The position numbers were made by a program, and so were the translations under genes. DNA of 60,295 bases, the filler included, from Dimargaris cristalligena (Eukaryota): NCBI GenBank assembly GCA_003614675.1. It is 2 parts of 2 records of this genome, joined end to end, with 100 filler letters (N's around TTAATTAATTAA, not from the genome) between each part and the next. Parts side by side here need not be neighbours in the genome. Positions count along the whole stretch, not along the records: positions 1 to 30,109 come from ML002466.1; 1 more part is not named here. One strand, written 5' to 3'. Under the pieces are notes generated by a model. That model was not told the origin of the DNA. It ran no database searches and was given only the letters and a program-made list of their open reading frames with translations. This document shows, in pieces, positions 1 to 31,850 of this stretch. Every line of letters begins with the position of its first letter. Position 1 is the stretch's first letter.

Positions 1-88
1 TCAGCCATACAGTAAATAGCCCAAACCATTTCGGTGGGCCATGCTTTGTGGAGGATGATTGTCACTGGCTTTACACTAGTAGCCCAGG
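1..88 (+). repeat. Direct repeat copy 1 of an 88-nt segment (copy 2 at 7811-7898); may extend left of the window
   Basis: tcagccatacagtaaatagcccaaacc...ttacactagtagcccagg matches 7811-7898 at 87/88 positions, with one mismatch (t56 vs g7866). Confidence 0.95.
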
Positions 89-3000: not shown

Positions 3001-3510
3001 TCCTGTGGCCCGCTCCAGATCCAGGGAACCGGGCCGCGACTGATCGGACACGGAGTGGCGGGCGGGGTGGCCCAGCATGGGCACATCTTCGGCGGATTGG
3101 GCGGCGGGAAAGTAGCCGGAACTGGACCGATGGGGGGCCTGACCGGCCTTGGAAGAGTCCATCTTAACAATGGGAGCGGAATGGGCGGGCTCGGGGAACG
3201 TTACGGAGGGGAGTAGTGACGGCGGCAAAGCAGATGGTGGCGAAGTCGATGGACCGGTCTTGCTGAAAGTTCCGGATAGAGTCCGATGGCGGGGGGACAG
3301 TATGTGAGTGTGTGGCTGAGGATGGTGGTCGGCTGGAGTTGGCTGGGCGGCGGCAGTGGCCGATGGTTGTGGCTCATCGGGACTTACCGGCCAAGAGGGC
3401 CAGTCACTTCGGGAGGATTGGGAAGCGGGGTGGGGTGGCTCATCGGCGCCAATGGATGGGGAAGCGTGCTGAGGGGTCACCGGTGGCTGTCCATCGTGAG
3501 GGGGATGCAT
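76..3510 (-). CDS. Voltage-gated (Kv-like, 6TM) potassium channel, 1144 aa, intronless; C-terminus possibly truncated or chimeric
   Basis: Pre-S1 LFLLMEDPSS, hydrophobic S1-S3 segments (FTAEFILRL, TIVDLVAIIPYY), Arg-periodic S4 (FRFTIVRVFRLFRVFSVFK), pore helix and filter SIPACLWYVSVALTTTGFGD, S6 GVLLIALPSIIVG. Both termini are long and low-complexity. Confidence 0.93.
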   Translation of the reverse strand: MHPPHDGQPPVTPQHASPSIGADEPPHPASQSSRSDWPSWPVSPDEPQPSATAAAQPTPADHHPQPHTHILSPRHRTLSGTFSKTGPSTSPPSALPPSLLPSVTFPEPAHSAPIVKMDSSKAGQAPHRSSSGYFPAAQSAEDVPMLGHPARHSVSDQSRPGSLDLERATGGADVHLVPPHSASLAAEGSTTADQNQGLTFLPFDVIDPDYQPHHRRTTTATSVSNSGATRNPFSYIARRFGNQGPSRKGGRDPYGGILTISDGIMPDGSEHPLRGRSGSTRDEPLRRYSTTAINIPDARPIGPTTVRDAGDIIQSQSQSQLPHHQHYPDAPRHRKSSRSNRQYPRPPRYRESPSLHPFEMAVENVGLLHDPIFGLPTIDANPEATARMLDISPMRVDGLRRRNHGGGPSGPRNGTSGMGDGNSSSSSSSSSESETEAERRSTIYPSAVDNYPLGRPVTDQQRDSGEEGRDTSGQPRPIERHHHHPLPSALNPLAPIMRNNEAAQMKSWWRRELFLLMEDPSSGTWAFAINLFVCFMIIASSIITIVETIPSLLVSNPNLWFNLESVIVGIFTAEFILRLIAHTDNRRQLARHLFSFLTIVDLVAIIPYYIELGVDRDRTYEFRFTIVRVFRLFRVFSVFKYSSLLQLSVEVMLIAMRRSMDALAALLFFMILTIVIFATILYFIERGEYDPEKQYFVNKLGDPSSFDSIPACLWYVSVALTTTGFGDVTPKTVWGKIMSFPLIMIGVLLIALPSIIVGREFTVVWQAMKLRRRKEFQTIQQMQRDARRKEKQRRRQERRERQQQLEHPPDDPNINNEKNLKGYVEHNQEPGSSKTLSVMNGSNSSKPDMVHPEDAQVINMHDYPAAPHTAPLDSTITSAKFPFPPAATDMAKTTSASVNDLMMNTTKDTATTKVVRPEVESPLSEPELKPGHHLSRLWGSKHHKHGYGQEAGGSDSHKHGKHAMGKSQSDHSDEAYSLYRSATKDLRKYSPDQAFMVMAHGFGLGKYKPKGRRATKRTSGGRPGPSGSNSKLPGGAGQTQRHSHHAGLSHHRPKPSHPGAVAHAATDPSIIRGKGKVVQALATKIVPGSGHRSKREVKHGRNHTSGHYVVSDGDKRKDDDSDDDDDDSDHDDDDDSDSNDILGY

Positions 3511-9358: not shown

Positions 9359-11764
9359 TCAATTCGATACTACATGTTCCTCTCTCTTGACCTGTTTGGC
9401 GCTCAAATGGCTCTTCCGTTCCGAGCGTTTTTTGAAACGCGAGCCCTTGATCAGATTAGCCCCCAGAAACGTGAGGGCCATTAGGCTAAGCAATATCAAA
9501 AAGTAGGGCCGACTGGCCTCACACACTGCCAGTCGGGCCAGCTGCTGAGCGTACTTGGGGATGCGTTTAGAACAGCCGGGCCGCAAATGGTGCTGGCCTT
9601 CGGCATTATAATGGGTAAAGTGAGTGCATATATCATCGGTCCGGGGGCCCGCAATGGCCATGGTCTGCTGATGCCAAATGCGCCGGATGATCAGGGTATG
9701 GGTCATTAGGCCTAAAATCCCGCCCAGGGTGAGTGAAAAGTGGGTAAACATACCCGCTACCGAGCGGTGGCGGGAGGGAACGGCACTTTGGGCGGTGGCG
9801 TAATATGTCGGCAGGGTGGTACCCAGGCCCAGACCCACCAAGACGGAAAATTCGACAAAGGTGACGGGGGCGAGCCCATGCCGGGAATTTGCGCTGGGGT
9901 CGGGGTTGGAGAAAGACCCCCCGGTCTCCATGGCGGAATGCCTAATGGAGAGCAGACCAAGGCCCATTAGCAGACAGGCGCTGCCGAATATCAGGGGCAG
10001 CGCCCGGTAGCGCTTAAAGCGTAAAAAGAACCCCGTCAAGGCCGCGGAGGCCCCGGCGGCTAGCATAACGGGGCACATGCGTTGGAATGTCACAATCCAG
10101 GTGGTGGGTTGGCCATATTTGAGGTAACGGTGCAAATGGGCGGTCATACCATAGAGGACGGCTCCGGAAACGAGCATGCCGAACGAACTGAGTAACCAGT
10201 TACGGTTGTAGAAGAAGACCGAGGGCAGTAGAGCGGCCCGTTTACGACGGCGAATGAGCTCGGCCAGACAAATGCCCAGACACAGCGCAATGGCGAACAG
10301 CGTTATAATGGCCTGTAAGTCTCTCGCGAAATTACCTGCGGCCCAAACGATACCCAGGACCAACGACATCACCGCGCTTAGAAATAGCAGGGCACCCAAC
10401 CCGTCCATCCGCCGCCACTGGTGGGAAAATGAGTAGGGGGTACTCCAGGCCAGGCCGTTGCTCAACACCAGCCCGGCCAGCAACGCCCCCCAGATGATAA
10501 GGTTGAGCAAGGGCAGCCACTGCCAGCCCCGTTTATAAATGAGCACTTCGCCTAGTAAGGGGCCTACCAAAGCCGCCATCAGAAACCCGGACCACGTGCA
10601 ACCCAGCCATACGAAACCGCGGTGGATTTCGGGGTACTGGTCCTGTAGGGCCACAAACGTGGCCACCAAAATCCCAGCCGATCCGATGCCCTCCAGGGCC
10701 CGCGCGACGCAAAAGTGGGTCATGTGGGTGGCCAGGAGGCCCACGGTACTTCCCACTAATGCAATGGTAAACCCGAAATAGGCCACCAACGCCCGCCCGA
10801 AATGGTCCGACCATTGGCAAAAGAGCAGGGTGAACACGGCCTCCAACGTCAAAAAGAGGACAGTGGCCCAGGAGAGACTGCCGTTGTAGCGGCGGAAGGC
10901 AGGGTCAACTAGTAGGGGTTGGGCGGTCATGAAGGCCGTATGGTTGAACCCGACCCATGTGGTGGCTAAAATGAGTAAAATCAACGTAATGCGCTGGCGC
11001 AGGGGAATTTTCTCGGCTAAAGGGCCCGGTAGAGGTGATGCCAGTGGGGGAAGGGAGCGGCGGCGGGTTGACATGGAACGCGGTCGAGAGCTCGACCGGG
11101 GGAGCGAGAATCCTCGAGCGTCGGCCCAATCGGTGGAAGAAGTCCTGGGTATGCCCTGGGTCGAAGATAGGGGGTCCCGGGAACGAGTCCGAGTCCTAGT
11201 CCGAATCGGCGAGGGAGTTTGCTTTTCCGCCTGGGGGTTCGACACTGAATAAGACTGGGACTGGGAATGGTACTGGGAAGTCCGGTCGTAACCGTCGTTT
11301 CCATACACAGTGATATTGGATGGGGGTCGAGAGCCATTTCGACGGGAGGCGGACGACAGGGGGCGGCGTGAGGAAGGGTGGGCGAGATCCATATGGGAAG
11401 GTGGAGGAGGAGGGGCTCGCCGGGTGTAAAGGGCTGCCAAATCATCGGTTCCCGACCAGTGTCGGGATGAACCCGGGTTCAGTGCAGGAGGGGGTTGGCG
11501 GGGCGGTTGCGGGGATTCGGGGCCTAGCCTGAAAATTTCGGGAAGTCTAGAAGCCGACCTGGTGTGGTGGAGATCCTGGTTAGGATCAACAAAATTGGCC
11601 CTATTATGGGCGCGTATATTATTGTCATCGTCGCCTTCGTCACCATCACCGGCGTTGTCTTCGGATGACTCCGATACCACGCGAATACTATCAGCTGTGG
11701 TCGGAAATACGGGTATTTGGTATTTGCTATAGTCCGGCTCGTTGACCGGAACCATGGTAACCAA
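9359..11764 (-). CDS. MFS transporter, DHA2 (14-TMS drug:H+ antiporter)-like, 801 aa with a ~250 aa disordered N-terminus
   Basis: About 14 hydrophobic segments; motif A-like WSDHFGR, ARALEGIGSAG, LVGPLLG...GWQW and RMDGLGALLF, all typical of DHA2/Azr1/Sge1-type MFS proteins. Confidence 0.85.
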   Translation of the reverse strand: MVTMVPVNEPDYSKYQIPVFPTTADSIRVVSESSEDNAGDGDEGDDDNNIRAHNRANFVDPNQDLHHTRSASRLPEIFRLGPESPQPPRQPPPALNPGSSRHWSGTDDLAALYTRRAPPPPPSHMDLAHPSSRRPLSSASRRNGSRPPSNITVYGNDGYDRTSQYHSQSQSYSVSNPQAEKQTPSPIRTRTRTRSRDPLSSTQGIPRTSSTDWADARGFSLPRSSSRPRSMSTRRRSLPPLASPLPGPLAEKIPLRQRITLILLILATTWVGFNHTAFMTAQPLLVDPAFRRYNGSLSWATVLFLTLEAVFTLLFCQWSDHFGRALVAYFGFTIALVGSTVGLLATHMTHFCVARALEGIGSAGILVATFVALQDQYPEIHRGFVWLGCTWSGFLMAALVGPLLGEVLIYKRGWQWLPLLNLIIWGALLAGLVLSNGLAWSTPYSFSHQWRRMDGLGALLFLSAVMSLVLGIVWAAGNFARDLQAIITLFAIALCLGICLAELIRRRKRAALLPSVFFYNRNWLLSSFGMLVSGAVLYGMTAHLHRYLKYGQPTTWIVTFQRMCPVMLAAGASAALTGFFLRFKRYRALPLIFGSACLLMGLGLLSIRHSAMETGGSFSNPDPSANSRHGLAPVTFVEFSVLVGLGLGTTLPTYYATAQSAVPSRHRSVAGMFTHFSLTLGGILGLMTHTLIIRRIWHQQTMAIAGPRTDDICTHFTHYNAEGQHHLRPGCSKRIPKYAQQLARLAVCEASRPYFLILLSLMALTFLGANLIKGSRFKKRSERKSHLSAKQVKREEHVVSN

Positions 11765-14283
11765 GCTGGTTAAAACAACCTATACTATCTTAGTAAGACG
11801 GTTCCCTATAGCGGTGGGTTAGATTTAAACGCTGGCGAAGGCCGATTAAAAGGGGATTCGGAATAGCTCAATGTCAGCAGAACTTATATATATATATTTA
11901 TAAAGGCGAAGCGTGATGAGATTTTGCTAATTAAAATTAAAAAAAGAACGGGTTCGTAGAATTAGAGAAAAATTTAGGGTAAAAATAAGCTGTGGCTAAA
12001 ATAACGCAGGGGGTCCAACATTAGTAAAGTATAATAAAAAAAGCGTCACAATGCCCCTAAAGTAACTTGTTCTAACGTTATATAAAATGCAAAATAATCT
12101 AGAATGAACAGCGGGTAGCAGTCGAACTGGGCTCCGTAGTGGAGTAGTATAGCCAATAGTTAGGGTAATGCAAAAACAATAACATGGTAATATATATAAT
12201 GTGTCTATATATACCGAGTTGAGCCCACAGAAGGAAAATAGCAGGCGCTGGGATTTAATTAAGAATAAAGTGCGTAGGGATAAGGAGAACGCGTGGAGAA
12301 GATATACGGTGATTTCAAGCTCTTTAGAGGTAAAGATGCTCCTATGTGCACCTAAAGTTGGTGTAAATAACATAACAGAATCTTCAACCACTGGCGGCGG
12401 CGGGGAGCTACTATTTATTGCGGCAATATGTCATGCCAAGGGATAGTGACCATTGAGAGACCCAGGGCGAACGCATCGGAGGGTAGAGAAGGGGGAGGTG
12501 GGCAAAGGTCAAGGAAGTTGGACTGGTGACTACAGGGATCACGGGAGGTACGCGGGTCGTGGCACCAGCGAAAACCAGTGAGAATCCAACCGCTCAAATG
12601 GGCCTTCCACTGAGCAGAAGAGAGACGGTGCGGTGGTTTGGCTTGGAAAGTGGAGACAACGGGGTGAACCATGGACATGTTTAGTTACATCGAAATCAAA
12701 AGTGTAAGTGGAGTAAAAACAAGGCAGGGGGAAGTCTAATGGATATGGCCAGCTGGGTTTGTACACCCGTTTGTAGGTGACACCAGCGTATCCTCAACAC
12801 GCCAGGAAGGATGGCTCCTTTCGTTCTTCCTATTACACCTTACCACCCTCGCCTATCGCCTAAACATGCCAACGACAAGCCTTTATTAATTGGCAATGGA
12901 AAGAGAAAGGCATAGGAGTCGGCGCACACGCTGTTGTAATCGATACCAACGACCAGGGAGTCGACTAGAACATAGTGATATTTAGTCGTAACACTTTAAT
13001 TCTAGCTGCCCCGGTACTATTTATCGAGCATTTTAATCAAACCCTAAACCTAAAGGCCAACCATACCATACCATATTATTTAATATAGGATCTGCGATTG
13101 CTGGTAAGTGTAGAATTCACTGGTATTGAAACCATAGCATTAATTGGGCCCAGACAGTTGTCATATCTGTCGATTAAGGATGCTACGCCGATCTGGTAGT
13201 ACATTTTAGGAAACTTGTGTATGGGAATGCTATATAAACGGGGGAGAGGGGAATGTGGTAAAATAGCAGCGTATTAAGCGTTTCCTATTTCCTATTTCCT
13301 CTGGCATTTGGCCATGAAAGTATAGCTGGGCAGAGGATATACTTACTGAGTCAATAGAAAGCGGGCATAGGAGGGCCCCCTCCACTGTTGTCCACCCTCT
13401 CGGGTTTTAGGTGAGCACATGCTGGTGCCACTTATACCTTTTTCTCCATCAGGGATAACTCTTGTTCGAAGGTAATAAAATGGATTGTCGACCCAAACCA
13501 TATAGCTGTGCGCTAAGGAAACAAATCGAACTTGATTTTATCGATAACCCCCCCCCCCCACTCACTAAATGAGGTAATGAATACAACGTCACTATTTCCC
13601 CATTCGAACACGTATATATATATATATAACTAGACAAGTCGATTTAGAGACACTTCTTTTAATTCCTGATTCGATTAAGGCCAGGCGTACGGGCGTGTTG
13701 TAGAAGCACCGAACTCCCTCATTATAAATAAGTAGGGTAGTGTTACTTGCACTTAAGATCACTTTACAAAAAAACATACGATGTAGCTCCCCTAAAAGAG
13801 TTTAAACTAAGACCCTCGAAAGTTGGCTGAATAACTATTACAACTGGGTTTTACAAAACTGGATGCTGCTTGATGGGCTACAAAAAGAATGTTCTATTGT
13901 ACTCCCCCTCCAGCCTTTTGCGCCTGTATCCTGACTTATTTTGGTCATTTAACAGGCAGTAACTCAGCAACCCAATAGTTTGGTGCTTCAAACTGTGAAA
14001 GCCCTACATAATATAAATGCAATATTTTCTCAACACAGCAAAGCTCCTGGCTGCTCGTAAATAAATAATTGACAGCCACCATTAGAGTCAGCTACGGGAA
14101 TAATAGTCCCTTTTTTCCCCGCTTCTCAGCTCAGTCCAAATCATCCTTATACTATGGCCAGGTAAAGTATGTAACCGCTGGAGCCACTATACCACCAAGC
14201 TTCTCATTTCCCAGGCCACTCACCTCATCCTCATTTTCGATTCCGTATTGACGCATTCCTTCGTTACATTAATTCATTCCGCC

Positions 14284-17635: not shown

Positions 17636-19373
17636 GTTGCGTTGGCGGCAATTGGCGTACCGGACGATGGGGCGTAGGTGGCTTCACTGCAAAACGAACG
17701 CAATGGAGGGCTGGGGTATTGTACAATGTCCAGGAAGAAATAGAGTGAACGCCCAAGAGATGGACCAATGACTCGCTGAGTTAGTGTTTAAATCGAGAGG
17801 GGGGTGCTTCATTGAGTAAATAACCAGCGGGCTGAAATGTCCCCCTGGGTCGTTGGTTAAGCACTGGTTAAACCCAAATATCAGTCTCAGGGGGTGAGGA
17901 AAGATAAACAATAAACAATGCCTCAGAATAACCCCGCCACAGCCCAAGGTTACACGGCCCCATATATTTTTATGATTCAATTAATTCCCCGCTATTCGGA
18001 AATATCAGAAAATAAAAACCCCGTCCTGGGATATTTATTGGATTGGCCCTGCTTCCTCTATCCCAAACTATTACTTTAAAGTCTGGCCAAATAAGGAGCT
18101 TTCTTAATGTGTTTGGCTAGAGCATGTATATATATTCGCCAATATCGCGGTTGAAATCCCAGGCTGGTGCTTAAGCCGAGATACTACCCTAACTAGTATT
18201 TTATTTCGGTTACATTTTATTCCGGTCGTCATTGAAGCCACATGGATCCGTATTGTTGGCTATTAATTCCCAAGTTATTCCCAAATCTTAAGTGGCCCAT
18301 ACCCAGCCTCTTGGATGAAACCAGTCACTAAATGTAGCATCACGGCGGCACCGGTAGCAGCAGGAAAGACAAGGAAATAGGTCGGCGGGTTCTGCACCAA
18401 GTCCCCATTACACCTGCTAAGCCAAGCTCCGAGCTGGCAATTTAATACTACAGTGTACGGCTACTTAGGAATACGTTATTTTATACTTTTAATTTTCATC
18501 TACCTACACTCTGTATTATGCCTATATAAGGTACCTCTCAGGTTTAAGAAGACACTTCCTTATAGAGCTATCTATTCAGGAATTGGCTATTTTATTTATC
18601 TGTAAAGCTGAATCGTGCTGGCTATGGTATTATCTCATATACGCCCAATTTCTACCTTAGTGGTATGCATTAGCACTATAGAACTGCCCGTATTGCCCAC
18701 TAACATGGGGTGGCACAAGCCTTATGAGTGTTGGTTATTTTAGTTCAAAGGATCTCCACTTATAAAGAGGCAATGGAACTATCTGGAATTTTTATAACCA
18801 AAGCTGCTGTGTGATTAGTTCATGGTGGAACTCAAGATTAGATAAATGGGCTGCCAATGGCACAGTATTATTGGGACATCGGGTCTGGCCAATAGGACGT
18901 CAATGGGGTAAGTAGGTTTTGGACTGCGCCGCGTTGCTACTCAATTCACCTTGAGTGATTTAGTTGGCTGTTATAACGTAGCGAGCAAAAATTTCATTCA
19001 GCCAGGAGACAGAACAGAGCGTAATGCCACTTAGGTAGACGCCCCACACAATTCCCTCTTTCCATTCAACCAAGACGGAGTCCAAGGATTTCATTCTTAT
19101 TGTTGAATTAAGTTATTATTTTTGCCTTTATTACGTTATTCTAGCAACGCCCAATGCGTCTCTAGGGCTATTTATTCAACAACCCTCACTGCCCCTCTCG
19201 TAGCCTGAGGCTCTCTCTGATTAGTCTTAATATTTCATTCCCGTCCCCTACTGAACACCACCAATCGATCAAGGAAGGTCTTCGAATCCTCATTTGCAGT
19301 TGATCCAACACCACCCGCAACAAAGATTTAACCACACTCCCCTGAGTCAGCCCATTCTTTTGCCTCGTCCACC

Positions 19374-21184
19374 ATGTCCATCCGAACCGCTCTACTTCCT
19401 CGACAGCGGGCAGTCAGCGCCGCTTTACGCAGCCGTGGCAAGTCCAGTTCCTCCCGCACCCTATCTTCAGTAACCGAGTCGCACCAAGGGCGCTCGGTTC
19501 CGGCGACCTCCACCCGCACGAACCCACGGACCAGCACCCCTTCCCCTTTGAAATCAGCATCGACCAGCCGCTGCTCGTTTGCGCACCCCGGACCCTCTTC
19601 TTCCCGAGGTTTCCATACTTCAGCTATCTTGACCAACAAGAAGGATTATTACGATCTCCTGGGGGTTAAGCGGGATGCTTCCCAGGGCGAAATCAAGAAG
19701 GCCTACTATGCCCTGGCCAAAAAGTACCATCCCGATACGAACCAGTCGAAAGATGCCCGGGAAAAATTCGTGGAAATCCAGGAAGCGTATGAAACCTTAT
19801 CCGATCAACAAAAGCGTGCCGGGTACGATCAATTTGGGCACAATGGATTTAATGGTAAGTGGCCACATTTATTCGACTGGGGTTCCAGTAGATGGTCTCC
19901 TCTTTCCTGGGTGACATTTTGGTATTCAACTGCTGTTATATAGTGACTTTGATTGGATAACTGATGTCCGATGGCTGATTCATATTGTCTACCATTATCT
20001 AATTCTAATGCAATCACTTCTACCTGATTTTTTCGCTTGAACCAGGCCAAGGCCATCCGTTTGGTGCCGGTGGATTCCCCGGAGGCGAGGCTGGTGGCTT
20101 CCCAGGGGGCTTTGATGCCTCCGATCTCTTCAGCCATATATTCGGCGGAGCCATGGGAGGAGGCGGCCGCCAGGCCGGGCGGCGTGGTGGCCGGGCCAGT
20201 CGAGGCCCCGAAAAGGGAGACCCCATTGAAAAGGTGATTACCATTTCGTTCATGGATGCTGTCAAGGGCTGTAAGAAGAGCGTCAGCATTACCCCAATTG
20301 TCGACTGCGGTACCTGCCACGGTTCGGGTCTGAAGACAGGGGCCAAGCCGTCCAAGTGTACTAGGTGTAATGGTACGGGACAAGAAACCTTTGTGATCCA
20401 GGCCGGGTTTCAAATGGCCTCGGTGTGCAGTGCCTGTGATGGTACGGGAGTCGTGGTTAAACGCGGTGACCAATGCCGTACCTGCGACGGAGCGGGTAGC
20501 GTGCGCGAGTCACAATCTATTGAAGTGGACATCCCAGCCGGTATTGATCAGGGCATGCGGATCCGGGTGCCCGGTAAGGGCAATGCCCCTATTGACCGCG
20601 AACCTGGCCAGGCCAACCGCGGTGTATCCGGCGATCTGTTCGTAAGCGTGAAAATCCAGCCCTCTGCGGTCTTCACCCGCCAGGGTAACGACATTTTCAC
20701 CGATCTGACCCTTCCCTTACACGTGGCCCTTCTGGGTGGCTACATCCGTGTACCTACCATCAACGGCGAGGTGGAAATGAAAGTCCCTAAGAATATTCAA
20801 CCCGGTGACAAATCGATGCTGCGCGGTCTAGGCATTCCCCACCTTAATAGTTCTGCCAAGGGTAACCAGTACGTCAATATCAAGGTTAAACTGCCGTCCA
20901 CTCCATTAGATGCCAAGCAGACCGAATTGATAGAACAGTTCGCCGTAGAATCCGAGCGTCGCCATCCCACCCAAAACTGGCGCCGTGATGGAACAGCTGC
21001 TTCCTCTGGTAGTGGGGAGACCGGCAATGGTGGTACTGCCACCAACAAAACCGACGATTCCTCATCGGCTTCGTCCACCCCGTCAGACAATGACAAATCA
21101 TCGAAGCCGGCCAGCTTCTTCAAGTCGGCGATGGATAAGCTTCGGCACCAAATCGACAAGAAAAACCAAGGTGACGATCAGTAA
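19374..21184 (+). CDS. MDJ1: Mitochondrial class A DnaJ co-chaperone (Mdj1-like); exons 19374-19854 and 20046-21184
   Basis: R/S-rich presequence ending RGFHTSA, J domain with HPD (KKYHPD), G/F-rich region, four CxxCxGxG repeats and a DnaJ C-terminal domain. The gtaagt...accag intron keeps frame. Confidence 0.92.
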
Positions 21185-23399
21185 TGACTGTATACCTGGC
21201 ATCTCTTTCGTGATGGACACTGCGCCGTATTATAATTGTCCAGCTGTTACATATAGATGAAGTCGTCTTATTTTTGGCACATCTCTAAAAGTCGCGTACC
21301 TTCCCTTGTTGTTTGTGAATTGTCGTTAGAACATCCTGCATCTACCCATTTATCCTTTCTTCTTGAATAGCATTGGTTTAGACCGGTGCTTTTGAATAAC
21401 TTTGCAATCTTCTATTAAATATTATGCTATGATACCAGTTGACCATAGTGGCAGCTGGCGGTAGGGCTACTCGGATTTAAAATTGCAATATGGGAGTACA
21501 GTAAGTTGCTTTTTGATTGCTCAGTTTGATTTTGAGCAATGGCATTAATAATAACCTCCTAGGTCTTTTTAACGTATACTTATTAAACGTACCATATGGG
21601 CGAAATTCATCAACAATATATACGATTTTTACCTATGTATGGTTGGTCTTGTAAGGCGTTCTATTTATTGTTTACCGGCAATGTCCGTCACATCAAATGT
21701 ACGGTTCATTATACGGCCTGTTTGAACAATCCCCAGATGAACCCCTTTAATTTGCCGGGACTGGGGCGAATATGCAGTGGGGATTGGATCGGCTGTATAG
21801 AGACGAACCCAGATGTCGGGTCAGATGTCTCCTGCTGAATAAATGCCACATTAGCCATCCCGCAGGCATTTCATCCAGATACCATTATTATTGTACTTCG
21901 TCCACGCATATAAACGGCTAAGTGGGGATACTAAAACCACTAACTGCCATTAGTATCGATCGTAATTTTAGAATGAAACGTCGTGGCAATTTGGGCCTCC
22001 CCATTGATAATAAGGCTATAATAGTATACAATTTTACCTACCTCCCCTCCCCAAGCGAGCATTATTTGACCGGCTTTAGCTGACTGATGTGCCGATGCTC
22101 ATTCACTGCTTATTATAATTCAAGTACATCCCTGTCGCCCCCGATTATTTTGTTTAGCTTGTAACGGGCCACACCGCCAATATATTAGTCAGTGTTACAT
22201 CTAGCAGGTTAGGAGGATCTGCGCCCGTCTGTGATGATCAAAACGAACAGCTCCCGCTCCCCCTGGAACGAGTAGCTTTCTTCCTCTAGTATTCCCGTAG
22301 CAATATATCGGTTTAACAATACTCTCCCATCCCCCGTCCGCATGTAACAAGCTAAAGGGTTACATGTCCAACTGGCACTAGTTGGCCCAACATATTTATG
22401 GTGTCCATTCTGCAGGATCGCCTTCCTTCCCCCTCTTATGCATACTCCTCACCTCTCAGTGGATTTCATTGGGTCTCGATCTTCGCATTTAGGCCTGCAT
22501 TGCACTATACTCCCATAATATCGATGTTGGGGAGGCATGTTCAGCCCAAAGAACAATACCAGAGAGTTCGCCACCAATAAACCAAATGACAGGCGGAATA
22601 AACCAAATCCCTGCACTAGCCACTTCCGTCTATATTCGGCCAACATAATAGAATGTCCACTGCCAGGCATGGTGCAGCATCAAAATGGGTTGACATCCAA
22701 CACTGGTAATAGAATAGGATAATTTGAATGACGCGGACTGTTATATTAAGTGGGTAATCAAGTATATCATAGGAGCAAATGTAGCCCGGCTTGTGTACCT
22801 GCCATATGCCACTGTGTTTCGGTGGCACAATACTCCGGCCATTGACAAACGGGAGGAGGGTATGAACCAATATGTAACGGGGCTTTGGTGGGTAAAGAAG
22901 AAATGGCGCGTATTCCTTTAGTGAATAATCTATCCTTAAACGATGGCTATACAATGCAATACCCCGATGGAGGCTTCCATTCACTGGGCCCTGTATGGCA
23001 CTAACTGCGTTGTGTAGCCCTATCCAGATGTTGATACACAATAGCAAGATAGTTCAATATGCCCTTCGCAGACTTTAGAATAAACGGGGCGATTTGAAAG
23101 CTGCAGGGCAATATCTGACTAAAATTATATAGGTCGTTCAGAGTCGCCAGTTGAACGGACACTGTTATTATAACAATATACATAGACGGGGCCCCGCCTC
23201 TACATCTAAATATCGTCCATTACATTTGGGATACACATTGACCTATTCCATTACATATATACTCACCATTCCATTATATCTCCATCTCCCAACCGATCTA
23301 TTCAGCCGTCAAGTTTGTATTGATTTGAAGTCAAAAATCCACCCTTTTCTGGCGTAGCTTAGTCAGGCATTGTATCTCTGGCTATTTTTTGTCATCAAA

Positions 23400-24134
23400 A
23401 TGCGTTTCGTTGGAGCCGCTTGTCTTTTTTTACTAGGCTCACTCACCGTCAACGGAGCCTCCGGGCAGTATTATCATAATGATATTGACGACTTCCTTTA
23501 TGTCAGCAGCCCTGGCAGCATGTTTGACGAAGCAGCTGAAAATCTAGTCAACGATCCCGTTTTCCAGGTTTTGCCGACGAAACGGCAGCTAGAGCTTATG
23601 GAACAATTAGGAAGTAGCCATTTGGCTAACAATAATGCCCTTCCCGAAGATCACACGAGCAACGAGGGCTTAGGATATACTCAAGGCAATGAACAGCGGG
23701 CCATCATTAGTCAGTTCACCCAAGGATCCGGGTCTATGGATTCATATTACAGCGCCGGGGACAGTGGTTCCGGCTCGGGAAGTGGAAGTCTCCCCTTTCC
23801 AGCGGCCCAGTACTTCTGCACCCAGGTGCCAATGGACCAGGATAGCGTCAGGGTGCAACAACCACGGGTGCTCCAAAGCAATAACGTACATCGGGATACG
23901 GGTTGTGAGGTGAAACCATTGGATTGTCTGGTATGCCATAAACCATTCACCCGACTGCATGATCTCAACCGGCATTTACGTATTCACACAGGCGAAAAAC
24001 CTTACGCCTGTAAATTATGTGGTGAAAAATTTGGTCGTTCAGATCGCCTGAAATCCCATGAGAGAGAGAAGTGCCCTGGTCGAAGTGCTGAAGGGTCCTC
24101 TTACACCGAATTATTACATCTGCCGACAAGCTAA
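23400..24134 (+). CDS. Signal-peptide-bearing C2H2 zinc-finger protein, paralog 1 (244 aa, intronless)
   Basis: ATG in aaaATG context; [22 protein letters not shown] is signal-peptide-like. C-terminal [49 protein letters not shown]. Confidence 0.88.
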   Translation: [244 protein letters not shown]

Positions 24135-24422
24135 TTCGGCTGTGCTATACCCCCCCCTGCTCACAGATGTCCTCGGCTACCGTCATTGGGGCAGTACTTT
24201 TGAACCAAGCCTTATCCATAAGACTATAGATCTCCTAGCCTCTTCTCTTTTATAAAGCCTCGCCTGTCAGGCCCATTTCGACAAATAGATAATTGGATGT
24301 CACAAAATTACACCGAAAGGGGGGCTGGGCCGCTACATTTCTATTGGCACTCTTTCAAAACAATAAACCCCCATTTTATCAAAGTAATTATCTTTGGGGA
24401 CAAATTGATAAACCCAGCCTAT

Positions 24423-25130
24423 TGTTAGGCCGGCGTTTTGAGGTCCTCCAATCTTGGGACTGAGGATGGGGCTGATGCCTTTCCCTTTGTTCGGGAAGAG
24501 AGGGTGGCCAGACGTCGGTTTTGAGGGGCCAGCGCCTGGGGTGACCATCGGGTACTCGGGGAAAAGTCCTTCCGCTAGAAGCCGTCAGTGTAACTGAAGG
24601 TCGCTGGGTGAAGCTAAGAACATATATTTATTTCGTATGGATCTCGAAGAATAGCTTGCCGTTTCAAGGGCCAAAGGTAGAGGTATATATATAAGAACTG
24701 GAAAGAGCGCTAAACTAAACTATAACTAAGATGATTCTGTTGTGGGGATTAGCTGGAGACTATAAAACCCTTGTTGAAAGGGGGAATACTGGTCGGGCTA
24801 CGGGAATTATGTTGCTTGAAATGGTTTGGAAGACGATAGAATTAGTGTGGAAGGTGGAAGTCCGTCGGGCGATCAGAACATTCATAGGGTTGTGGTCACT
24901 TTGGGAAGAGTAACTGGGTGAGGATGGAGATCTTGATGCTTCTTGATCCCTTTTGGTAGGTTGAGGTGGATTATTTCATCCGGTGTGATGATGGATGAGG
25001 TTTCGTGAAGGTGAGTAGTGTGGCAGGGTCGGTATCTCGAATGGGTCATTAGTGTCCTCCGGGCTTCCATGGGAGTCGACTAGGATTGGCGCTTGAGTTC
25101 TAGGGTTACTAGGAGGTGGCAGGGTGTTAA
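24423..25130 (-). mobile_element. Degenerate LTR-like element (related copy at ~29257-29750)
   Basis: On the minus strand the order is TATA-like run (~24684-24694), AATAAA (~24627-24632), then terminal ...GGCCTAACA at 24423. A diverged second copy starts tgttaggcc at 29257. The other end and the TSD are unclear. Confidence 0.45.
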
Positions 25131-27214
25131 CCCATCGATCCATAGTAGTGACCAGAAAACTTCACCCTTGCCAAAGGCATTACACTGTATATATACTATC
25201 ATTTATTGGAATCATTTAGTGCCGTCTCAGTTACTTTCGTAATCCAATGCTACTTGTCTGCTCCACGAAATAAAATTGGGCTTGTTTTTTACATTGATTC
25301 ATCGGTTATCTAGGTGTTCAATTGACTTCCCTTAACTAAACAGCTGGCATTATTATATATCCCAAATCGACTATATTATACATTTTATAAAACACTTACC
25401 ACACTATGTTATGGGCTCCTCGATATACCCTTCCTTGGTGTAGGCTATTTCAGCATTTACTGGCACTTTGACCCATGTCGTATTAGTATTCCTGGTAATT
25501 ACAAGAATATGAAATTGAATTAGCAAAAGTGGTATAGCGGGTCGATATGGGTAGAATACAGTGCAGCTGTGCAGTGTTTTGGGTGATACGCGTATGAGAA
25601 AGTATATGGGGGATCCATTATTAACCAGAGGTTTTTGCCTTGTCCAACGGATTTATCATTATACAGCCTGGTTGAACCTTTCTCATATTGTGAGTCTAGC
25701 AGGGGGAAACTGTCTTGGTTCTTCTAGTAATCTTATGGTGCCATACCCATAAACACTCTAATTGTATCTACTGAAAAAGCAAGCTACATTGGCTAATTGG
25801 TAAATCAATGTGAAACTATCCCCCCAAATGGTCAAATAAGGACATTTTCCACCCTCATTTTAGTACAATGCAATTCCCATTGCAGTCCAAGGCATCCTCA
25901 CAACTCCAAGATTTGTGAATAGTATCATTTTAAAGCTGTTTTGTGAACACATAGTATAGGCAGGTTTTTATGCCCATACCCATATCAAATACACGCTGAT
26001 TTCTTGTAAATCATTATATCTAATTAGATAGTAAGGGTATAGTATTATGCTATTCCCTCCCTCAAGCGAGTATATTATGGCTGTCTTTAGCTGACCAATG
26101 CGTTGATGCCCATTCGCTGTTCCGTATAAATCAGACACCACTCTTACTCCCGATTAATTTGCTTTAACTCAAAAGTCGTAGATTCACTCGGAAACAACCG
26201 ACTCAATGCGTCTATAGTGCCCATTTCCTGTGGCCATATTTTTCTGTCCATCAAATGCATGTTCATTGATTCCCGCTGGAAATCCTTGAACCTCAACCTG
26301 CGACCACAGACTTACATTACTCCGTAATACCATGATATTACTATTAGGGAGGCGTGTTCGGCCCATAGCAGAACAACAGAGCGTTCAATACCAAACCAGG
26401 CGTCTCGACCAAAAATAGAATGGAGTGTTCAGTCCAAGGATTTAATACATTGCACGTAATACAATAGAATGTTCGCTGATAGGGAAGGTGTGGCACCCAG
26501 ATAACTTGAAGCCCAATGTTTATTATAAAATAGGGTAGTTTCAATAACGAGGGGGATCATATTAGATGGGAGATTTCGGTCGCCACAGGAGTACAAGTGG
26601 CCTGGCTTTTGTACCCGGTATATGCGAATATGGTGTCGCGGCTCAACTCTCCAGCCATTGATAAACGGGAGGAATATATGAACCAATATGCAATAGGGCG
26701 TTTGTGGCTGAAAGTGCAATGGTGCGTATTCCTTTAGTGAGTAATACATATTTAACTAATAACCATAGTACGCAGTGCCCCAATGGGGGCTGTCATTCAT
26801 TTGATTCTGTATGACACTATCTGCGTTGTGTAGCCCCAATCATTTATTTTACACAATAGCATGATTTTTCAAAGCGCCCTTCGCAGACTTTAGAATAAAT
26901 TGGGCCGTTTTAAAACCTCGGGGTAATGGTTACCTACTGTTATATGGTTTGGCCAGAATCGCTAGCTGAACGGGCGCTATTATCTAAACTACATATATTA
27001 GCCTCGCCTCGCCTCTGTATCCAAATCTCGCCCATTATGTTTCGGATATATATTGACCTATTTCATTACAGATATATTTACCATTACATTTTACCTTCCC
27101 CTCCCAACCGATTAATTCGGCCATCAAATTTCTATGTATTTTTAGACAATAATCCATATCTTTCTGGCGTAGCTTACTTAAACACTATATCTCCGTCTAT
27201 TTTTCTTCAACAAA

Positions 27215-27931
27215 ATGTATTTTATTGGAGCCGTTTGTCTTTTTCTACTGGGCTCACTCACCGTCAACCGAGCCTCCGAACAGGATTGTCATACCATTTA
27301 TCTCAACAACCTACTCAATACCAACAACCCCGATGGCGGCTTCGAGGAAGACTACGCAGAACTAGCCAAGGATCCCTTTTTTCAGACATGGACAGTGGAG
27401 CAACAGCTAGTGTATATCAGCCAACTAGACAATAAAGAGTTGGCCAACCACATTTCTATTACCGAATTCCTCATGAACAACGAGTGCACCGGATATTCTG
27501 AAGTTAACGAACGGCTGGCCATCATTGATCAGTCCACCCCAGGCCCCAGATTTACAAGTTCGAACCCCCTTACCCAGGCTAGTGGTTCCGGCTTGGGAAG
27601 TGGTAGCCTCCCCTTTTCAGCGGCCCAGGTCTCCACGCAGGAGCCCATTTATCAAGCTACCACCAACGTGAAACAGCCACGGGTTCCCAAAAGCAATCGT
27701 GCATATCGGGATACAAACTGTAAAGAGAAACAATTTGGCTGTCTGGAATGCCCCAGAGAATTCACCCGTTGGAATGATCTCGACCGACATAAACTTATTC
27801 ACACAAATGAAAAGCCCTTTGTCTGTAAATGGTGCGGTACCAGATCTAATCGTTCAGATAACCTGAAACGACATCAGTCAATACATGGTTGCCCGGTTCA
27901 AGGTGCCGAAGGCCCCCCAGGCAATGTGTGA
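27215..27931 (+). CDS. Signal-peptide-bearing C2H2 zinc-finger protein, paralog 2 (238 aa, intronless)
   Basis: aaaATG start; [22 protein letters not shown] is signal-like. C-terminal [48 protein letters not shown]. Colinear with paralog 1 along its length. Confidence 0.88.
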
Positions 27932-28304
27932 TTTTTGTTAGAAAATGGACACTTCATATCTGGGGCCACGTTCATACTTATCTTACTCGCCTGACTTCAT
28001 CTATATTCTATTATCAGCTATTCAGTTATTACTCAATAAAATCAAGTGAAGAGGTTCTCCTGAATCTCTTTGCGGCTTTTCTCTCTTATTATTGTTTTGA
28101 TATACTTTATTAGTTTGCGAATTCTATCTAGAATACATCTCCAACAATTTTAACCGCCCACGGGTTAATTCGGCTGTGCTATGGTCCACCCTGCTCACGG
28201 ACATTCTCAGCCACCATCATTGGGGAAGTATTTCTGAACCAAGCCATTGTCATAAAACCATAGATCTCCTAGCCTCTTCTCTTTTATAAAGACCTACCTG
28301 TCAG

Positions 28305-28869
28305 TGTTGGAAATTCATTTCCCCCGTCCCACCGATTCCATCTCTCTGATTGGCTCGTCCAATACTCGGGACTATATTCTAGTCATTACTATATTATTGC
28401 CTGCACGACAATTTATTAACTAATTTTCGATACATAATGGGAGGGGACCAGTAAACTGGTCGTAAGGATATGGTGTAAAAGAGAAAACGAAACAAAATAG
28501 AAAAAAGAGAAAAGAGAACCCGCGCGCAGCAAAGGGAGAGTGCAGGCGTGGGGTAAGAGGTGAGGGTGGGAGATCCCCAACGAAAAAGAGAAAATATAAG
28601 GGAAAGAGGGCGGTCTGCAAGGCCGACCGACCCTATATAGAACTATTATCGTTGGTCAATAAAGGCGGAGTCCCCTCTAAAGTGGGGACACCGTCCCATT
28701 ATTCTATACCTGTGACTTCATCCTAATTGTTATTACTGCTATTATCCAATTCAATAAAACCAACCGCGGGCATCTAGCCTTGTCCCTTGCAGTTCTTTCT
28801 CTCTTCTTTAAATCTTTTTAGTTGTATCTAAAGGCACTTGCGTTTACCATCCAATCAATATTTCCAACA
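28305..28869 (+). mobile_element. Solo LTR of an LTR retrotransposon, 565 bp, with 5-bp TSD GTCAG
   Basis: Termini TGTTGGAAAT...ATTTCCAACA form a 10-bp perfect inverted repeat with TG..CA ends. GTCAG is duplicated at 28300-28304 and 28870-28874. The paralogous empty site has a single GTCAG at 24266-24270. Internal TATA-like (~28634) and AATAAA (~28753). Confidence 0.88.
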
Positions 28870-29256
28870 GTCAGGCCCATTTTGACATATATAATTGGAT
28901 GGCACATGATTGCACTAAAAGAGCAGCTGGACTACTCCACTTCTATTGGTATTCTTTCAAAATAATAAAACCTATTTATACTGGGTAGATTTTCTTTTGG
29001 GATAAATGGGTAAACCCTGCTGATTGCTAGTCATCAGTATAGATCAATAACCATTCCAATCTGGGATGGACTGCAGCTGTATTGTAGAGTGGTAAGCACC
29101 CCACTGCAGTTTTGGTCACAATTAAAAGCCACTCAAAAATAGCCATTAGTTAGACCAATAATGTAAATAGTAAGAAACTCTGGGTGGCTTGCCATACACA
29201 CAGGCACTGTCTAATGAAAACTAGAAACATGGGAAAGGTTTAACCAGGCTGTCTAA

Positions 29257-29750
29257 TGTTAGGCCAGTGGTTTAAGGCCCCTCCCTTCTAGGACTAAGGC
29301 TGGGGTTAGATCCCTTGTCCTCCCTGGGATCAGCAGGGTTACTGGATATCAGGTTTGGAGGGCTCAAGGTGCTTGGGTGAAACATGGAGTACTCGGGAAA
29401 TAGTCCCTTGGCTATTCAGATTGGGTCAGAACTGTGCTCGGAGGTCAAATTAGGATATGGCACAAAATGTTCCCCGTGAAATGGTCCTACACTCCCATTG
29501 TCAGAGTTAGGTGCTGGAGGAGCCACAGTGGCTATGTGCTGAAAATGGGGTAATGATAAGGTAAAATAAAATATTGACTTCTGGTTGAAGTCCTAGGCTA
29601 ATGCTGGGTAAAACACTGGGTGAAGTTAAAGTAGATATTTATTCTGAATAATAAAAACTTATCTCGAAGATAACTTACTATTTTAAGGGCCAACTGGGGA
29701 GACTATATATATGCAAATTAATACTATGAACTTAGAGCTATACTGCTACT
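29257..29750 (-). mobile_element. Degenerate LTR-like element, diverged copy of 24423-24700
   Basis: The blocks tgttaggcc, gtactcggg, ctgggtgaag, atctcgaaga, aagggccaa and tatatatat are shared in the same order with 24423-24695. Confidence 0.45.
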
Positions 29751-29916
29751 TTAGGATGTCGTCCTCAGATGAACTGACAACCATAAAACCACAAAGGGAA
29801 AAACTGGCTGGGTCTTCCAGTTTGAACACTATGTAAAAGAGGAAGGAAAAGATATATAGGAAAACGGAAGATAAAATTGCCTTGGATCTGCTGGGGCATT
29901 CTTGAAGGTAGGATAT

Positions 29917-30054
29917 TGTTATGATAGGCTATAAGTAAGACCAGGTACCACAAGATGGACAGGACTTTGAAGGATGGAAAATAGGTTTATTAGACTAGAT
30001 ATCAAAAAGGGAAAACAAAAGAGGAGTTGTAAGCTAAAGAGCAAGCTGTGGGGG
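29917..30054 (-). mobile_element. LTR 3'-end fragment (second family), inverted copy of 31132-31270
   Basis: Reverse complement reads ccccacagcttgctctttagcttacaactcctc...ctaataaac...aagtcctgtc...gtacctgg...atcataaca. Confidence 0.6.
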
Positions 30055-30109
30055 TATGGTAAACTTACCACATTTTTTACCTACTTTTATTTTTTATCTA
30101 TTTTTCGCA

Positions 30110-30209
30110 NNNNNNNNNNNNNNNNNNNNNNNNNNNNNNNNNNNNNNNNNNNNTTAATTAATTAANNNNNNNNNNNNNNNNNNNNNNNNNNNNNNNNNNN
30201 NNNNNNNNN
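30110..30209. other. Artificial assembly spacer: 44 N + TTAATTAATTAA + 44 N
   Basis: Exactly 100 nt and symmetric; the 12-mer places a TAA stop in all six frames. Confidence 0.95.
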
Positions 30210-31850
30210 TTTATTATCTATCTTTTCAAATAAAGTTCAGTTTTCAAGGATTTGATTTCAGTTCTTTACACCTGGAATCCATCTAAAGTATGACTACTTC
30301 TTGGATTAGTAATGGGTACTGGGGCTTATATAGCCTCTACCCAACTGCCCACAGCAGCACACTATACAGTAGGACAGAGGGATTTTCCCCATTATTAGCT
30401 ATCAAAACTAAATGCCCCTACCCCCTATTACTCTAGGAGGCTCTTTCCTGCTATTAATGTCTTATTTAATAAATTATCTATACCCATACTTTGGCTAGTC
30501 CTATTTTGCTGACTAGTACATAATAGTACTAACTAATAAAGGCTAGCAGTAGATATGTACAAGGGACATACAGGGGGTACACTTACTAGTTGGTATAAGG
30601 GGAATGGGTATATATAGGGTTTATTGGATAAATAAGGGGTAGGAATAAACAAAGGAATCTAACTGGTCCCAATGGGGCCCAGTTATATCAATATGGGGAT
30701 GACTCTAGAGGGAGGTCCTAAGGGGGAATACTACTAAGACTATATTATAATAGTTAGTCAAGATGGACCAGGGATTTACTAATATATTGTAATCTGAGGG
30801 AAGAGAGGGAATTTTTTTAGGTATTTAGAAATAGTACTAATAAAGTTTATAATATAATTATATTTAGATATAATTAGTTACTGGGTTTAGGAGAGTATTA
30901 GTATCATGACTGGTTAATTCAAACTATAAGAATAACCAGCCATACAAGTAAAAAACCCATACCAATGGATGAGTAAATTAGCATTTAATATCATAGAAAT
31001 ATATACCCATTATCCTACTGTATTCTATTACTATCATTATATTCCCCTTATTCTCTAGTTACTGATTCTTATTTATTAGTCATTACTATTCTTCCCCTGC
31101 CCCTTAAGTTTGAATATAACCCCAGCCATTTCCCCACAGCTTACTCTTTAGCTTACAACTTCTCTTTTATTTTATCTTATTCTGATATTTTATTCTAATA
31201 AACTCAATCCTACCTTTCCAAGTCCTGTCTGTCCTTCAGTACCTGGCTTTAATACCAGCCCATCATAACAATTAGTCACTTTATACTTTGCTCTCAGTTT
31301 TAGTTATAGTGGAATTAGCTATTATTTATACTTCACTTAGTGGGGCCTCCCAGAAGGTTGGGTTATGTGAGTGAGAGGGTTTAAATATTAATAGGTTACT
31401 TGGCAGTTGTAATAGGATAGATAAATAGGCCAGTTAGATGTCCACTAGTATCTAGAAGACTCAGATAGTAACCAAAAAAGTCCTATAGATTAATACCTGA
31501 GTGATTAGTATGAAGGGGTGGAGTTTGGGTAGGGGAAAGGTTTAATATAATATAGGATGATCCTATGGTGCTGGGTGTAACCATGGGAAGGATAATTAAG
31601 TGTAATAAGGCCTAATATAATTAGAAGTCTAAGCTGGCCAGATTAAGGTGGATTAAAAGTACCAGTACTTGGGATTTGAATTTCATAATGGAATCAAAAA
31701 AGGATACCCTTTTTTGTGCCAAATTACTTGGGTATGAAAATGCCACAAAACAACTTCCTGGGATTGGTATAAGAGGAGGTGGATTAGAAAGAAACTGCTA
31801 TAATGGAATAGTATTTTTTGGCACTTTCATCTCAAAAATGCCCACAGATG
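30210..31850. mobile_element. Heavily mutated, CpG-free repeat/transposon relic region including an LTR 3' end at 31132-31270
   Basis: No CG dinucleotide found by reading 30210-31851. TA-rich with no long ORFs; contains an AATAAA...CATAACA LTR-like end repeated at 29917-30054. Confidence 0.6.

Follow-up and report, generated by a model that had tools for sequence, protein, structure and literature searches.

Tandem genes for zinc-finger proteins with signal-peptide-like leaders in Dimargaris cristalligena: candidate effectors of a mycoparasitic fungus

Analysis of a 60,295-nucleotide stretch of DNA from Dimargaris cristalligena (hereafter the window, which consists of two contigs) revealed, on the first contig of 30,109 bp, two neighboring genes, A and B, whose predicted proteins combine an N-terminal signal-peptide-like leader, an acidic middle region, and two C-terminal C2H2 zinc fingers. 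A first-pass annotation of the same DNA had placed two intronless paralogs at 23400-24134 and 27215-27931 and had proposed them to be exported mimics of transcription factors. The coordinates, plus-strand orientation and frames of both open reading frames (ORFs) were confirmed, and all motifs quoted for them are present: the leaders, the acidic/aromatic segments, the conserved blocks, and the two fingers linked by TGEKP or TNEKP. The features of the two genes are as follows.

23400..24134, + strand: coding sequence of copy A, intronless, 244 amino acids (aa; protein P0001), comprising the leader, an acidic region predicted to be disordered, the GS-LP motif and two C2H2-type fingers
23400..23459, + strand: signal-peptide-like leader of copy A, residues 1-20 (MR, a 15-residue uncharged run, NGA), putative cleavage between A20 and S21
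23463..23909, + strand: acidic region of copy A, residues 22-170, net charge -13, mostly predicted disordered
23763..23810, + strand: GS-LP block of copy A, 16 residues, its DNA 92% identical to 27581-27628 in copy B
23925..23987, + strand: finger 1 of copy A, C176-H196, C-x2-C-x12-H-x3-H, contacts -1/2/3/6 being R H D R
24009..24074, + strand: finger 2 of copy A, C204-C225, last ligand non-canonical (H-x4-C), contacts R D R S
27215..27931, + strand: coding sequence of copy B, intronless, 238 aa (P0002)
27215..27274, + strand: signal-peptide-like leader of copy B, residues 1-20, putative cleavage between A20 and S21
27740..27802, + strand: finger 1 of copy B, C176-H196, contacts R N D R
27824..27886, + strand: finger 2 of copy B, C204-H224, canonical H-x3-H, contacts R D N R

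Two intronless genes in a tandem duplication

Neither ORF contains a stop or needs an intron, and both lie on the plus strand. The encoded proteins are 47% identical across 234 residues (E 2e-56), which marks them as tandem paralogs, and the coding DNA is 68% identical; a tblastn search of the window with seven family queries returned A and B as the sole copies. In 200 shuffles of the region 21201-30109, the longest ORF starting with ATG had 168 codons, compared with the 238 and 244 observed. Substitution-only drift was simulated 5000 times for each copy. With p=0.16, half the divergence observed, 0.5% of the runs for A and 0.9% of those for B kept an open frame; with the full divergence (p=0.319), 0% (A) and 0.04% (B) did so. 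Every internal gap in the alignment of the two proteins is one codon long and hence in frame. The exact 238-aa protein of ORF B is present in the public protein collection, and the exact 244-aa translation of ORF A was not found there. We regard it as almost certain that A and B are real protein-coding genes.

In both copies M1 is the first in-frame ATG, lying 14 codons (A) or 11 codons (B) past a stop, in the context CAAAATG; judging from the sequence, M1 is the translation start of A and B. In copy B the in-frame stop upstream of the ATG lies at 27179-27181, and there are zero AG dinucleotides between this stop and the ATG, so that no upstream exon could be spliced onto the B frame there. 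A hidden upstream exon or an overlapping gene in the upstream flank was considered and rejected, as each frame holds at least six stops in both copies and the phase mismatch is 0.22/0.29/0.29.

A and B are intact members of a tandem segmental duplication, which includes the following blocks and non-coding elements.

22045-22159 with 26055-26169: duplicated block
22647-24053 with 26463-27868: duplicated block, 70.3% identical
24132-24270 with 28166-28304: duplicated block, 82.7% identical
24266-24428 with 28870-29030: duplicated block, 75.6% identical
22647..23399, + strand: upstream flank of copy A, with promoter and leader, co-duplicated with 26463-27214
26463..27214, + strand: co-duplicated upstream flank of copy B, partner 22647-23399
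24132..24270, + strand: conserved 3' block of copy A, 139 nt
28166..28304, + strand: conserved 3' block of copy B, 139 nt, split from the stop codon by a ~230-nt insertion relative to A

The duplication extends well into non-coding DNA. Over the 632 nt measured (22768-23399 versus 26584-27214), the upstream flanks are ~73.5% identical, with 26% substitutions and one gap column, and no conserved reading frame was found in these 632 nt of either copy. The flank is nearly free of indels, whereas the coding sequence has three in-frame ones, and in this respect it resembles length-constrained non-coding DNA. The two 3' blocks contain a 32-nt identical run, and their identity of 82.7% exceeds that of the coding sequence (68%). 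An Rfam scan of 21500-30109 gave 0 matches at E <= 1. The 3' block is probably a 3' untranslated region or a terminator region or element; part of the block of copy A is used as the terminal exon in the finger-skipping gene model of the other assembly (P0003, see below).

The expectation that effector genes are duplicated and adjacent to transposable elements was borne out for the duplication and failed for the transposons. The spacer between the copies (24135-27214) has no ORF longer than 108 aa, the eight longest ORFs of spacer and flanks gave no Pfam match (0/8), and BLAST of 21201-30109 against the window returned no dispersed repeat family; apart from the blocks of the duplication, it gave two short matches that stand alone. 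Transposon adjacency was rejected, as none of these three analyses detected a transposon-like feature.

The Jukes-Cantor (JC) divergence between the copies is 0.42 for the coding sequence, 0.33 for the upstream flank and 0.22 for the 3' block; the 63 nt encoding the leader are the least diverged (JC 0.14), with a synonymous divergence (dS) of 0.20 versus 0.57 for the whole gene. The ratio of nonsynonymous to synonymous divergence (dN/dS, omega) of the whole gene is 0.66-0.67 by NG86 (bootstrap 0.46-0.94), 0.81 by LWL85, and 0.91 by maximum likelihood (ML). By region, omega is 0.69-1.71 for residues 22-120 (the value 1.71 is a single YN00 estimate and carries little weight), 0.48-0.66 for residues 121-170, and 0.72-0.96 for the fingers. 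Constraint on A and B is weak, and the family is fast-evolving. The first-pass annotation had argued for selection on the architecture of these proteins and had named a dN/dS near 1 as speaking against its proposal. The omega values for the whole gene (0.66-0.91) and for residues 22-120 (0.69-1.71) come close to that mark. Selection shows not in dN/dS but in frames that have stayed open, indels that preserve the frame, and motifs kept over seven loci. A conserved leader followed by a rapidly changing mature part is the look of diversifying secreted families.

A family defined by its N-terminus

The search for relatives used a profile of A and B limited to 163 N-terminal positions, which include the leader, P38, L75 and the GS-LP block; the fingers were left out because generic fingers would swamp the search. 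Among 1.84 billion representative proteins, seven matched with E <= 0.001, and the informative five of these are all from D. cristalligena; for the other two, P0053 and P0054, the match is limited to the GS repeat. The independent matches are P0049 (1.4e-44), P0050 (2.5e-30), P0051 (4.0e-25) and P0052 (1.1e-22); the fifth informative match, P0003, is a model of copy A itself. Together with P0006, which came from a similarity search, these matches extend the pair of paralogs to a family of at least seven loci (A, B, P0006, P0049/P0055, P0050, P0051/P0056 and P0052/P0057), found only in D. cristalligena among the representatives searched. No member from outside this species was among the profile matches, and proteins of other Dimargaritales were included in one of the searched collections. 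When the N-terminal 170 aa of B served as query in a word-based search, nothing but B was retrieved, and residues 1-165 of A had no usable match in a protein atlas. The members and gene models other than P0001 and P0002 are listed below.

P0006: 229 aa, full-length third paralog with two fingers; contacts -1/2/3/6 are R Y D R in finger 1 and R D Y R in finger 2
P0003: model of copy A in the other assembly, fingers removed
P0049/P0055: 163-aa N-terminal module fused to a ~1300-aa membrane protein in both assemblies
P0050: 123 aa, model without fingers
P0051/P0056: 156 aa, model without fingers
P0052/P0057: 114 and 176 aa; P0057 ends within finger 1 at ...FTCPQCPKSF...

The leaders of A, B and P0006 share the same anatomy: (i) an n-region MR or MY, (ii) an h-region of 14-17 uncharged aa with a mean Kyte-Doolittle hydrophobicity (KD) of ~2.2, and (iii) a polar c-region ending in x-A-S-x-Q, with the putative cut between A and S, A at position -1, and N, N or S at position -3. 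A stretch of 14-17 residues is shorter than a typical membrane span. The h-region of copy A, a 15-aa uncharged run with a mean KD of 2.20, is the sole hydrophobic segment of that protein; no second hydrophobic segment is present in A, B or P0006 (the best 19-aa KD window past residue 30 is at most 0.45), and neither HDEL/KDEL nor a hydrophobic C-terminal tail was found in these three proteins.

The signal-peptide-like start described for the two genes is shared by all 10 sequences of the family, which come from 7 loci. We scored the best N-terminal 12-residue KD in the family and in a control set of 44 unrelated C2H2 proteins taken from a similarity search. The score is at least 2.04 in all 10 family sequences and averages 0.65 (standard deviation 0.76) in the controls, whose uncharged runs all stay below 14 residues (0/44 reach this length). 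Seven of the nine invariant columns of a six-sequence family alignment fall within residues 1-23 (M1, G5, L9, L12, L15, A20 and Q23), and the amino-acid identity between A and B is 0.80 over codons 1-20 versus 0.25-0.35 over codons 21-120. On these alignments, the leader is the best-conserved part of the family. We consider it probable, given this anatomy, that the N-terminus is a functional signal peptide for the endoplasmic reticulum (ER), of the cleavable type.

The middle region (residues 22-170) carries a net charge of -13 in A, -8 in B and -17 in P0006. AlphaFold, given the family alignment, produced a model with a mean predicted local distance difference test score (pLDDT) of 45. In this model, short low-confidence helices occur within residues 22-79 (pLDDT 53-57 for residues 41-70), residues 72-170 fall below 50, and the two fingers (residues ~171-228) are the sole confident part (pLDDT 77-84). 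The idea that the acidic segment is an activation domain was upheld as far as acidity and predicted disorder go; activation itself is suggested by the resemblance of such a segment, with its F, L, Y, V and M residues, to acidic activation domains. The GS-LP block in this region has a single variable position (G/L) across A, B and P0006.

The reading of the fingers as classical DNA-binding ones was supported by database matches. Pfam zf-C2H2 (PF00096) scored 35.1 bits in A and 37.8 bits in B against a cut-off of 25.2, with two stretches in each, and the finger region has 221 sequence matches in PDB, including ZNF568, Zif268/EGR1, WT1 and KLF4. The linker between the fingers is HTGEKPY in A, HTNEKPF in B and HTGEKPF in P0006. 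At 30-47% overall identity, the three proteins keep all seven canonical ligands, the framework and the TGEKP/TNEKP linker, and a Cys or His is available in each as the eighth ligand. Finger 1 has canonical ligand spacing in 3/3 proteins. In finger 2 the last ligand is canonical in B only, being H-x4-C (HEREKC) in A and H-x6-C in P0006; the finger 2 helix of A is still modeled by AlphaFold, with the pLDDT dropping from 83 to 69.

The R/D/R contacts of finger 1 are kept in all three full-length paralogs; in finger 2 the R/D contacts are kept and position 3 is R, N or Y. The fingers thus appear to be of the classical DNA-binding type, and sequence-specific binding is predicted from their contact residues. 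The canonical recognition code predicts a GCG-like triplet as the target of finger 1 and a target that varies among paralogs for finger 2; since the paralogs differ at some contact positions, they would read different DNA sites. We also looked for a nuclear localization signal (NLS) by the crude criterion of at least three Lys or Arg in five residues. No such basic cluster occurs in A or B, and in P0006 such windows are confined to the fingers. Finger domains can themselves mediate nuclear import, so the lack of a basic cluster does not exclude nuclear function.

Finger sequence is found at four of the seven loci (A, B, P0006 and P0057), and the models of the other three lack it. Both public assemblies carry ab initio gene models: those of PMC9866270 were made with Funannotate, according to the part of the paper available, and the string 'transcriptom' occurs 0 times in the text of PMC6784888. 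As the annotations are ab initio, truncated or merged models are likely. In both assemblies, P0049/P0055 has the family module at the head of a multi-pass membrane protein (1491 or 1554 aa); here ab initio prediction has probably fused two separate genes and passed over the finger exon. The P0003 model of copy A splices from AAC/GTACAT (after codon 162) to CACAG/ATG at 24167, so that 23886-24166 are removed and both fingers are lost. This splice was judged a probable ab initio artefact, as copy B has CACGG in place of the CACAG acceptor of A and no GT at the donor position of A; that 3/3 full-length paralogs keep their fingers in frame counts against it as well.

P0051 and P0056 differ by one residue and were deposited under D. 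cristalligena and Syncephalis pseudoplumigaleata, and the UniRef entry spans both taxa. This double labeling is likely a cross-sample contamination within one sequencing project; a shared host is no explanation, because each parasite was cultured on a host of its own.

The database proteins closest to A and B are labeled D. cristalligena. The same contig carries an Mdj1-type DnaJ gene (19332-21184) whose product shows identities of 66% (Dispira simplex), 64% (Dimargaris xerosporica), 67% (D. verticillata, partial) and only 49% (Mucor). Since Mdj1 is closest to Dispira and Dimargaris, the contig is the parasite's own and not the culture host's. The assignment to a haustorial mycoparasite agrees with these identities and with the biology of the Dimargaritales, which attack Mucoromycota and some Ascomycota by means of an appressorium and a haustorium, as stated in the accessible part of PMC9866270. 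The Mdj1 gene is split into a J-domain ORF (19332-19943) and a central/C-terminal ORF (20009-21184), presumably by a short intron; its public model, of 464 aa, is partial. The upstream neighbors on the contig are ordinary genes; besides Mdj1, they are the following.

76-3546: ion channel
9359-11779: major facilitator superfamily (MFS) transporter

A run of N with TTAATTAATTAA in its middle (30110-30210) joins the two separate contigs; the inverted repeat 30004-30059 / 31126-31181 therefore represents no physical linkage. The second contig contains an open frame of 2452 codons at 41670-49028 (+).

Secretion, host nuclei and the competing explanations

The model that we favor comprises the following steps: (i) the leader would take the pre-protein into the secretory pathway and be cut near A20 and S21, (ii) the protein would leave the parasite cell by default secretion, plausibly at the haustorium, since it shows no retention signal, membrane anchor or glycosylphosphatidylinositol-type tail, (iii) the mature protein would enter the host Mucorales cell and then its nucleus, and (iv) the two fingers would bind a short GC-rich site while the acidic region would modulate host transcription, the GS-LP block serving as a conserved hinge between acidic region and fingers. 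Entry into the secretory pathway is the sole step supported by our analysis; export, uptake and nuclear action are proposed by analogy with MoHTR1-3 of Magnaporthe oryzae.

The whole chain, from secretion through the host nucleus to host transcription, is a serious but tentative possibility, somewhat short of probable, and the delivery of A and B to host nuclei to act on host transcription may be real, though we would not call it probable either. That the two proteins are effector-like candidates is plausible: the family is known only from D. cristalligena, arose in part by tandem duplication, and has a whole-gene omega of 0.66-0.91. More doubtful is the wider proposal that D. cristalligena possesses its own family of transcription-factor effectors for use against another fungus, possibly with a haustorium-specific leader, an activation domain, and fingers diversified among paralogs (position 2 of finger 1; positions 3 and 6 of finger 2) to address different host gene sets.

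Several observations weigh against the favored model. The leader was called from heuristic anatomy and a small control rather than from the output of a trained predictor, and a KD of at least 2.0 is also reached by 4 of the 44 control C2H2 proteins. At three of the seven loci (P0049/P0055, P0050 and P0051/P0056) the models have no fingers, P0003 removes those of A, and all these models are ab initio. Finger 2 lacks its canonical last ligand in A and P0006, neither A nor B has a basic cluster for nuclear import, and copy A has seven Cys past the leader, so that its fingers must stay reduced and metal-loaded in the oxidizing secretory pathway. The codon-position mismatch between A and B is flat (0.30/0.34/0.32), and omega for the whole gene is near 1 by some estimators (ML 0.91); with one gene pair only, relaxed constraint is not separable from diversifying selection. 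Finally, we know of no uptake mechanism into fungal host cells.

Two alternatives accept the genes and dispute their destination. A and B could be ordinary intracellular transcription factors of the parasite, the N-terminus serving, for example, protein interaction or degradation, or acting as a weak leader that lets the bulk of the protein stay in cytosol and nucleus. Stripped of residues 1-20 they would be textbook activators, an acidic disordered region followed by classical fingers; moreover, the conservation of the leader (seven of nine invariant columns) exceeds the plain need of ER targeting and could reflect another function, and hydrophobic N-termini do occur in the 4/44 controls. However, a 14-17-residue uncharged stretch directly behind M-R, with a polar, small-residue c-region, is present in 10/10 family sequences, against no run of 14 or more in the controls, and as the first segment to emerge it is generally expected to engage the signal recognition particle. 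Housekeeping regulators, too, are rarely species-restricted and tandemly duplicated with omega at 0.7-0.9. We consider this explanation rather unlikely; if the leader does not direct secretion, the family would be merely a young, fast-evolving family of transcription factors. It is unlikely, too, that the proteins are secreted or enter the secretory pathway for a role other than host transcription, in the extracellular or haustorial matrix, cell wall, ER or vacuole, with fingers that are dispensable, decaying or not promoter-binding. The N-terminal module by itself defines the family, models at 3/7 loci do without fingers, A and P0006 have lost the last His of finger 2, and the finger-region omega of 0.72-0.96 and missing NLS cluster fit such a role. 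The finger-less models, however, may be truncated or merged, as P0049 with its fused membrane protein and P0057 with its end in finger 1 suggest, and the retention of ligands, framework, linker and R/D/R contacts in A, B and P0006 at 30-47% identity points to a working DNA-binding domain.

Two further alternatives question the genes or their origin, and both are largely refuted. Non-functional ORFs, either decaying duplicates or chance or mis-called frames, would account for the flat codon-position mismatch, the ML omega of 0.91, a coding sequence more diverged than its upstream flank (JC 0.42 versus 0.33), and the missing public record of the 244-aa translation of A. Yet fewer than 1% of the neutral simulations stay open, shuffled sequences do not exceed 168 codons, the gaps are single in-frame codons, the zinc ligands are retained, and five other loci keep the N-terminal module and its motifs, which makes such an account very improbable. 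Still harder to credit is a contig derived from the culture host or another contaminant. D. cristalligena was grown in dual culture with Cokeromyces recurvatus (PMC6784888), host reads contaminate Dimargaritales assemblies (PMC9866270), both as given in the accessible parts of these papers, and one family member is also labeled Syncephalis pseudoplumigaleata. Against this stand the Mdj1 identities (64-67% to Dispira and Dimargaris versus 49% to Mucor), the lack of any Mucorales protein among the family profile matches, and the culture of Syncephalis on another host, Mucor moelleri, reported in the same part of PMC6784888.

Almost nothing is known of how biotrophic mycoparasites of early-diverging fungi control their hosts. 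A recognizable leader joined to a DNA-reading domain leaves this family open to cheap tests, and the contact residues allow prediction of target sites. If the wider proposal of a diversified effector family is true, D. cristalligena would provide the first system of transcription-activator effectors directed by one fungus at another, and Zoopagomycota would have their first defined effector family.

Comparison with known systems

Full-text literature searches, which excluded supplementary tables with possible lists of predicted secretomes, revealed no account of zinc-finger proteins secreted by Dimargaris or by another mycoparasite. A paper on rust gene families (PMC4071342), consulted for secreted zinc fingers, has just a CCHC family, without relevance here. 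The text of PMC6784888 does not contain the word 'secreted', and that of PMC9866270 contains neither 'zinc finger' nor 'signal peptide'; in the portions available, both papers deal with proteases, carbohydrate-active enzymes (CAZymes) and secondary metabolites.

The finger domain itself resembles the classical two- and three-finger domains of Zif268/EGR1, WT1, KLF4 and ZNF568, with which it shares the C-x2-C-x12-H-x3-H finger 1, the F/L framework, the TGEKP linker, an RSDxLxxH-type finger 2 helix and, in the predicted structure, a confident beta-beta-alpha fold. In contrast to the family described here, those proteins are nuclear and have no leader; two of our three full-length paralogs also have a non-canonical last ligand in finger 2. 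Two-finger regulators are known in fungi, for example Mig1/CreA and Msn2. A conserved signal sequence followed by a variable mature part is characteristic of conotoxin superfamilies and of some fungal or oomycete effector families. The A/B family resembles these in having the leader as its most conserved segment, in tandem duplication and in restriction to one lineage; conotoxin-type families are usually cysteine-rich folded toxins or effectors, whereas A and B are transcription-factor-like.

The closest functional parallel is provided by Magnaporthe oryzae, for which Kim et al. 2020 (PMC7672089) list 20 predicted secreted DNA-binding proteins, half of them C2H2, and report that both MoHTR1 and MoHTR2 are secreted proteins which reach the nuclei of rice and bind promoters. 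In Lee et al. 2023 (PMC10189765), MoHTR3 is described as carrying an NLS besides its signal peptide, with the C2H2 domain at the C-terminus; the authors found such candidates in M. oryzae only, among the fungi compared there; both papers are cited for their accessible parts. The premise of the first-pass annotation that fingers of this kind do not come with signal peptides was therefore too strong, as MoHTR1-3 carry them. Like MoHTR1-3, A and B are shorter than 300 aa and combine a signal peptide at the N-terminus (for A and B, recognized from heuristic anatomy) with a C-terminal C2H2 domain; in both cases the producer is a fungal parasite with a biotrophic stage, the proteins are lineage-restricted, and binding to host promoters in the host nucleus is proposed.

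The differences are equally clear. The MoHTR proteins have, by their descriptions, a single C2H2 domain with basic flanks, modeled on GAGA, whereas in A and B two tandem fingers are joined by a TGEKP-type linker and the N-terminal region is acidic; an NLS has been mapped in MoHTR3, whereas A and B have no basic cluster. The MoHTR producer is an ascomycete and its host a plant, whereas A and B come from a zoopagomycete with a presumed fungal host. Secretion, translocation and DNA targets of the MoHTRs are experimental, and A and B are known from sequence alone. Beyond the generic finger there is no sign of common descent: the MoHTR set is told apart by its published descriptions, and the N-terminal profile, which matches nothing outside D. 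cristalligena, argues against homology.

Thus, secreted C2H2 nuclear effectors are, as a kind, already known from the published accounts of MoHTR1-3. If A and B do act in host nuclei, such effectors would have arisen independently in a zoopagomycete mycoparasite and in Magnaporthe oryzae, against fungal and plant hosts, respectively, and their origin would be independent both of the Magnaporthe MoHTRs and of the bacterial TAL effectors. What the present family adds to the kind is a zoopagomycete producer, a presumed fungal target, a two-finger TGEKP array, and an acidic module without a basic NLS cluster.

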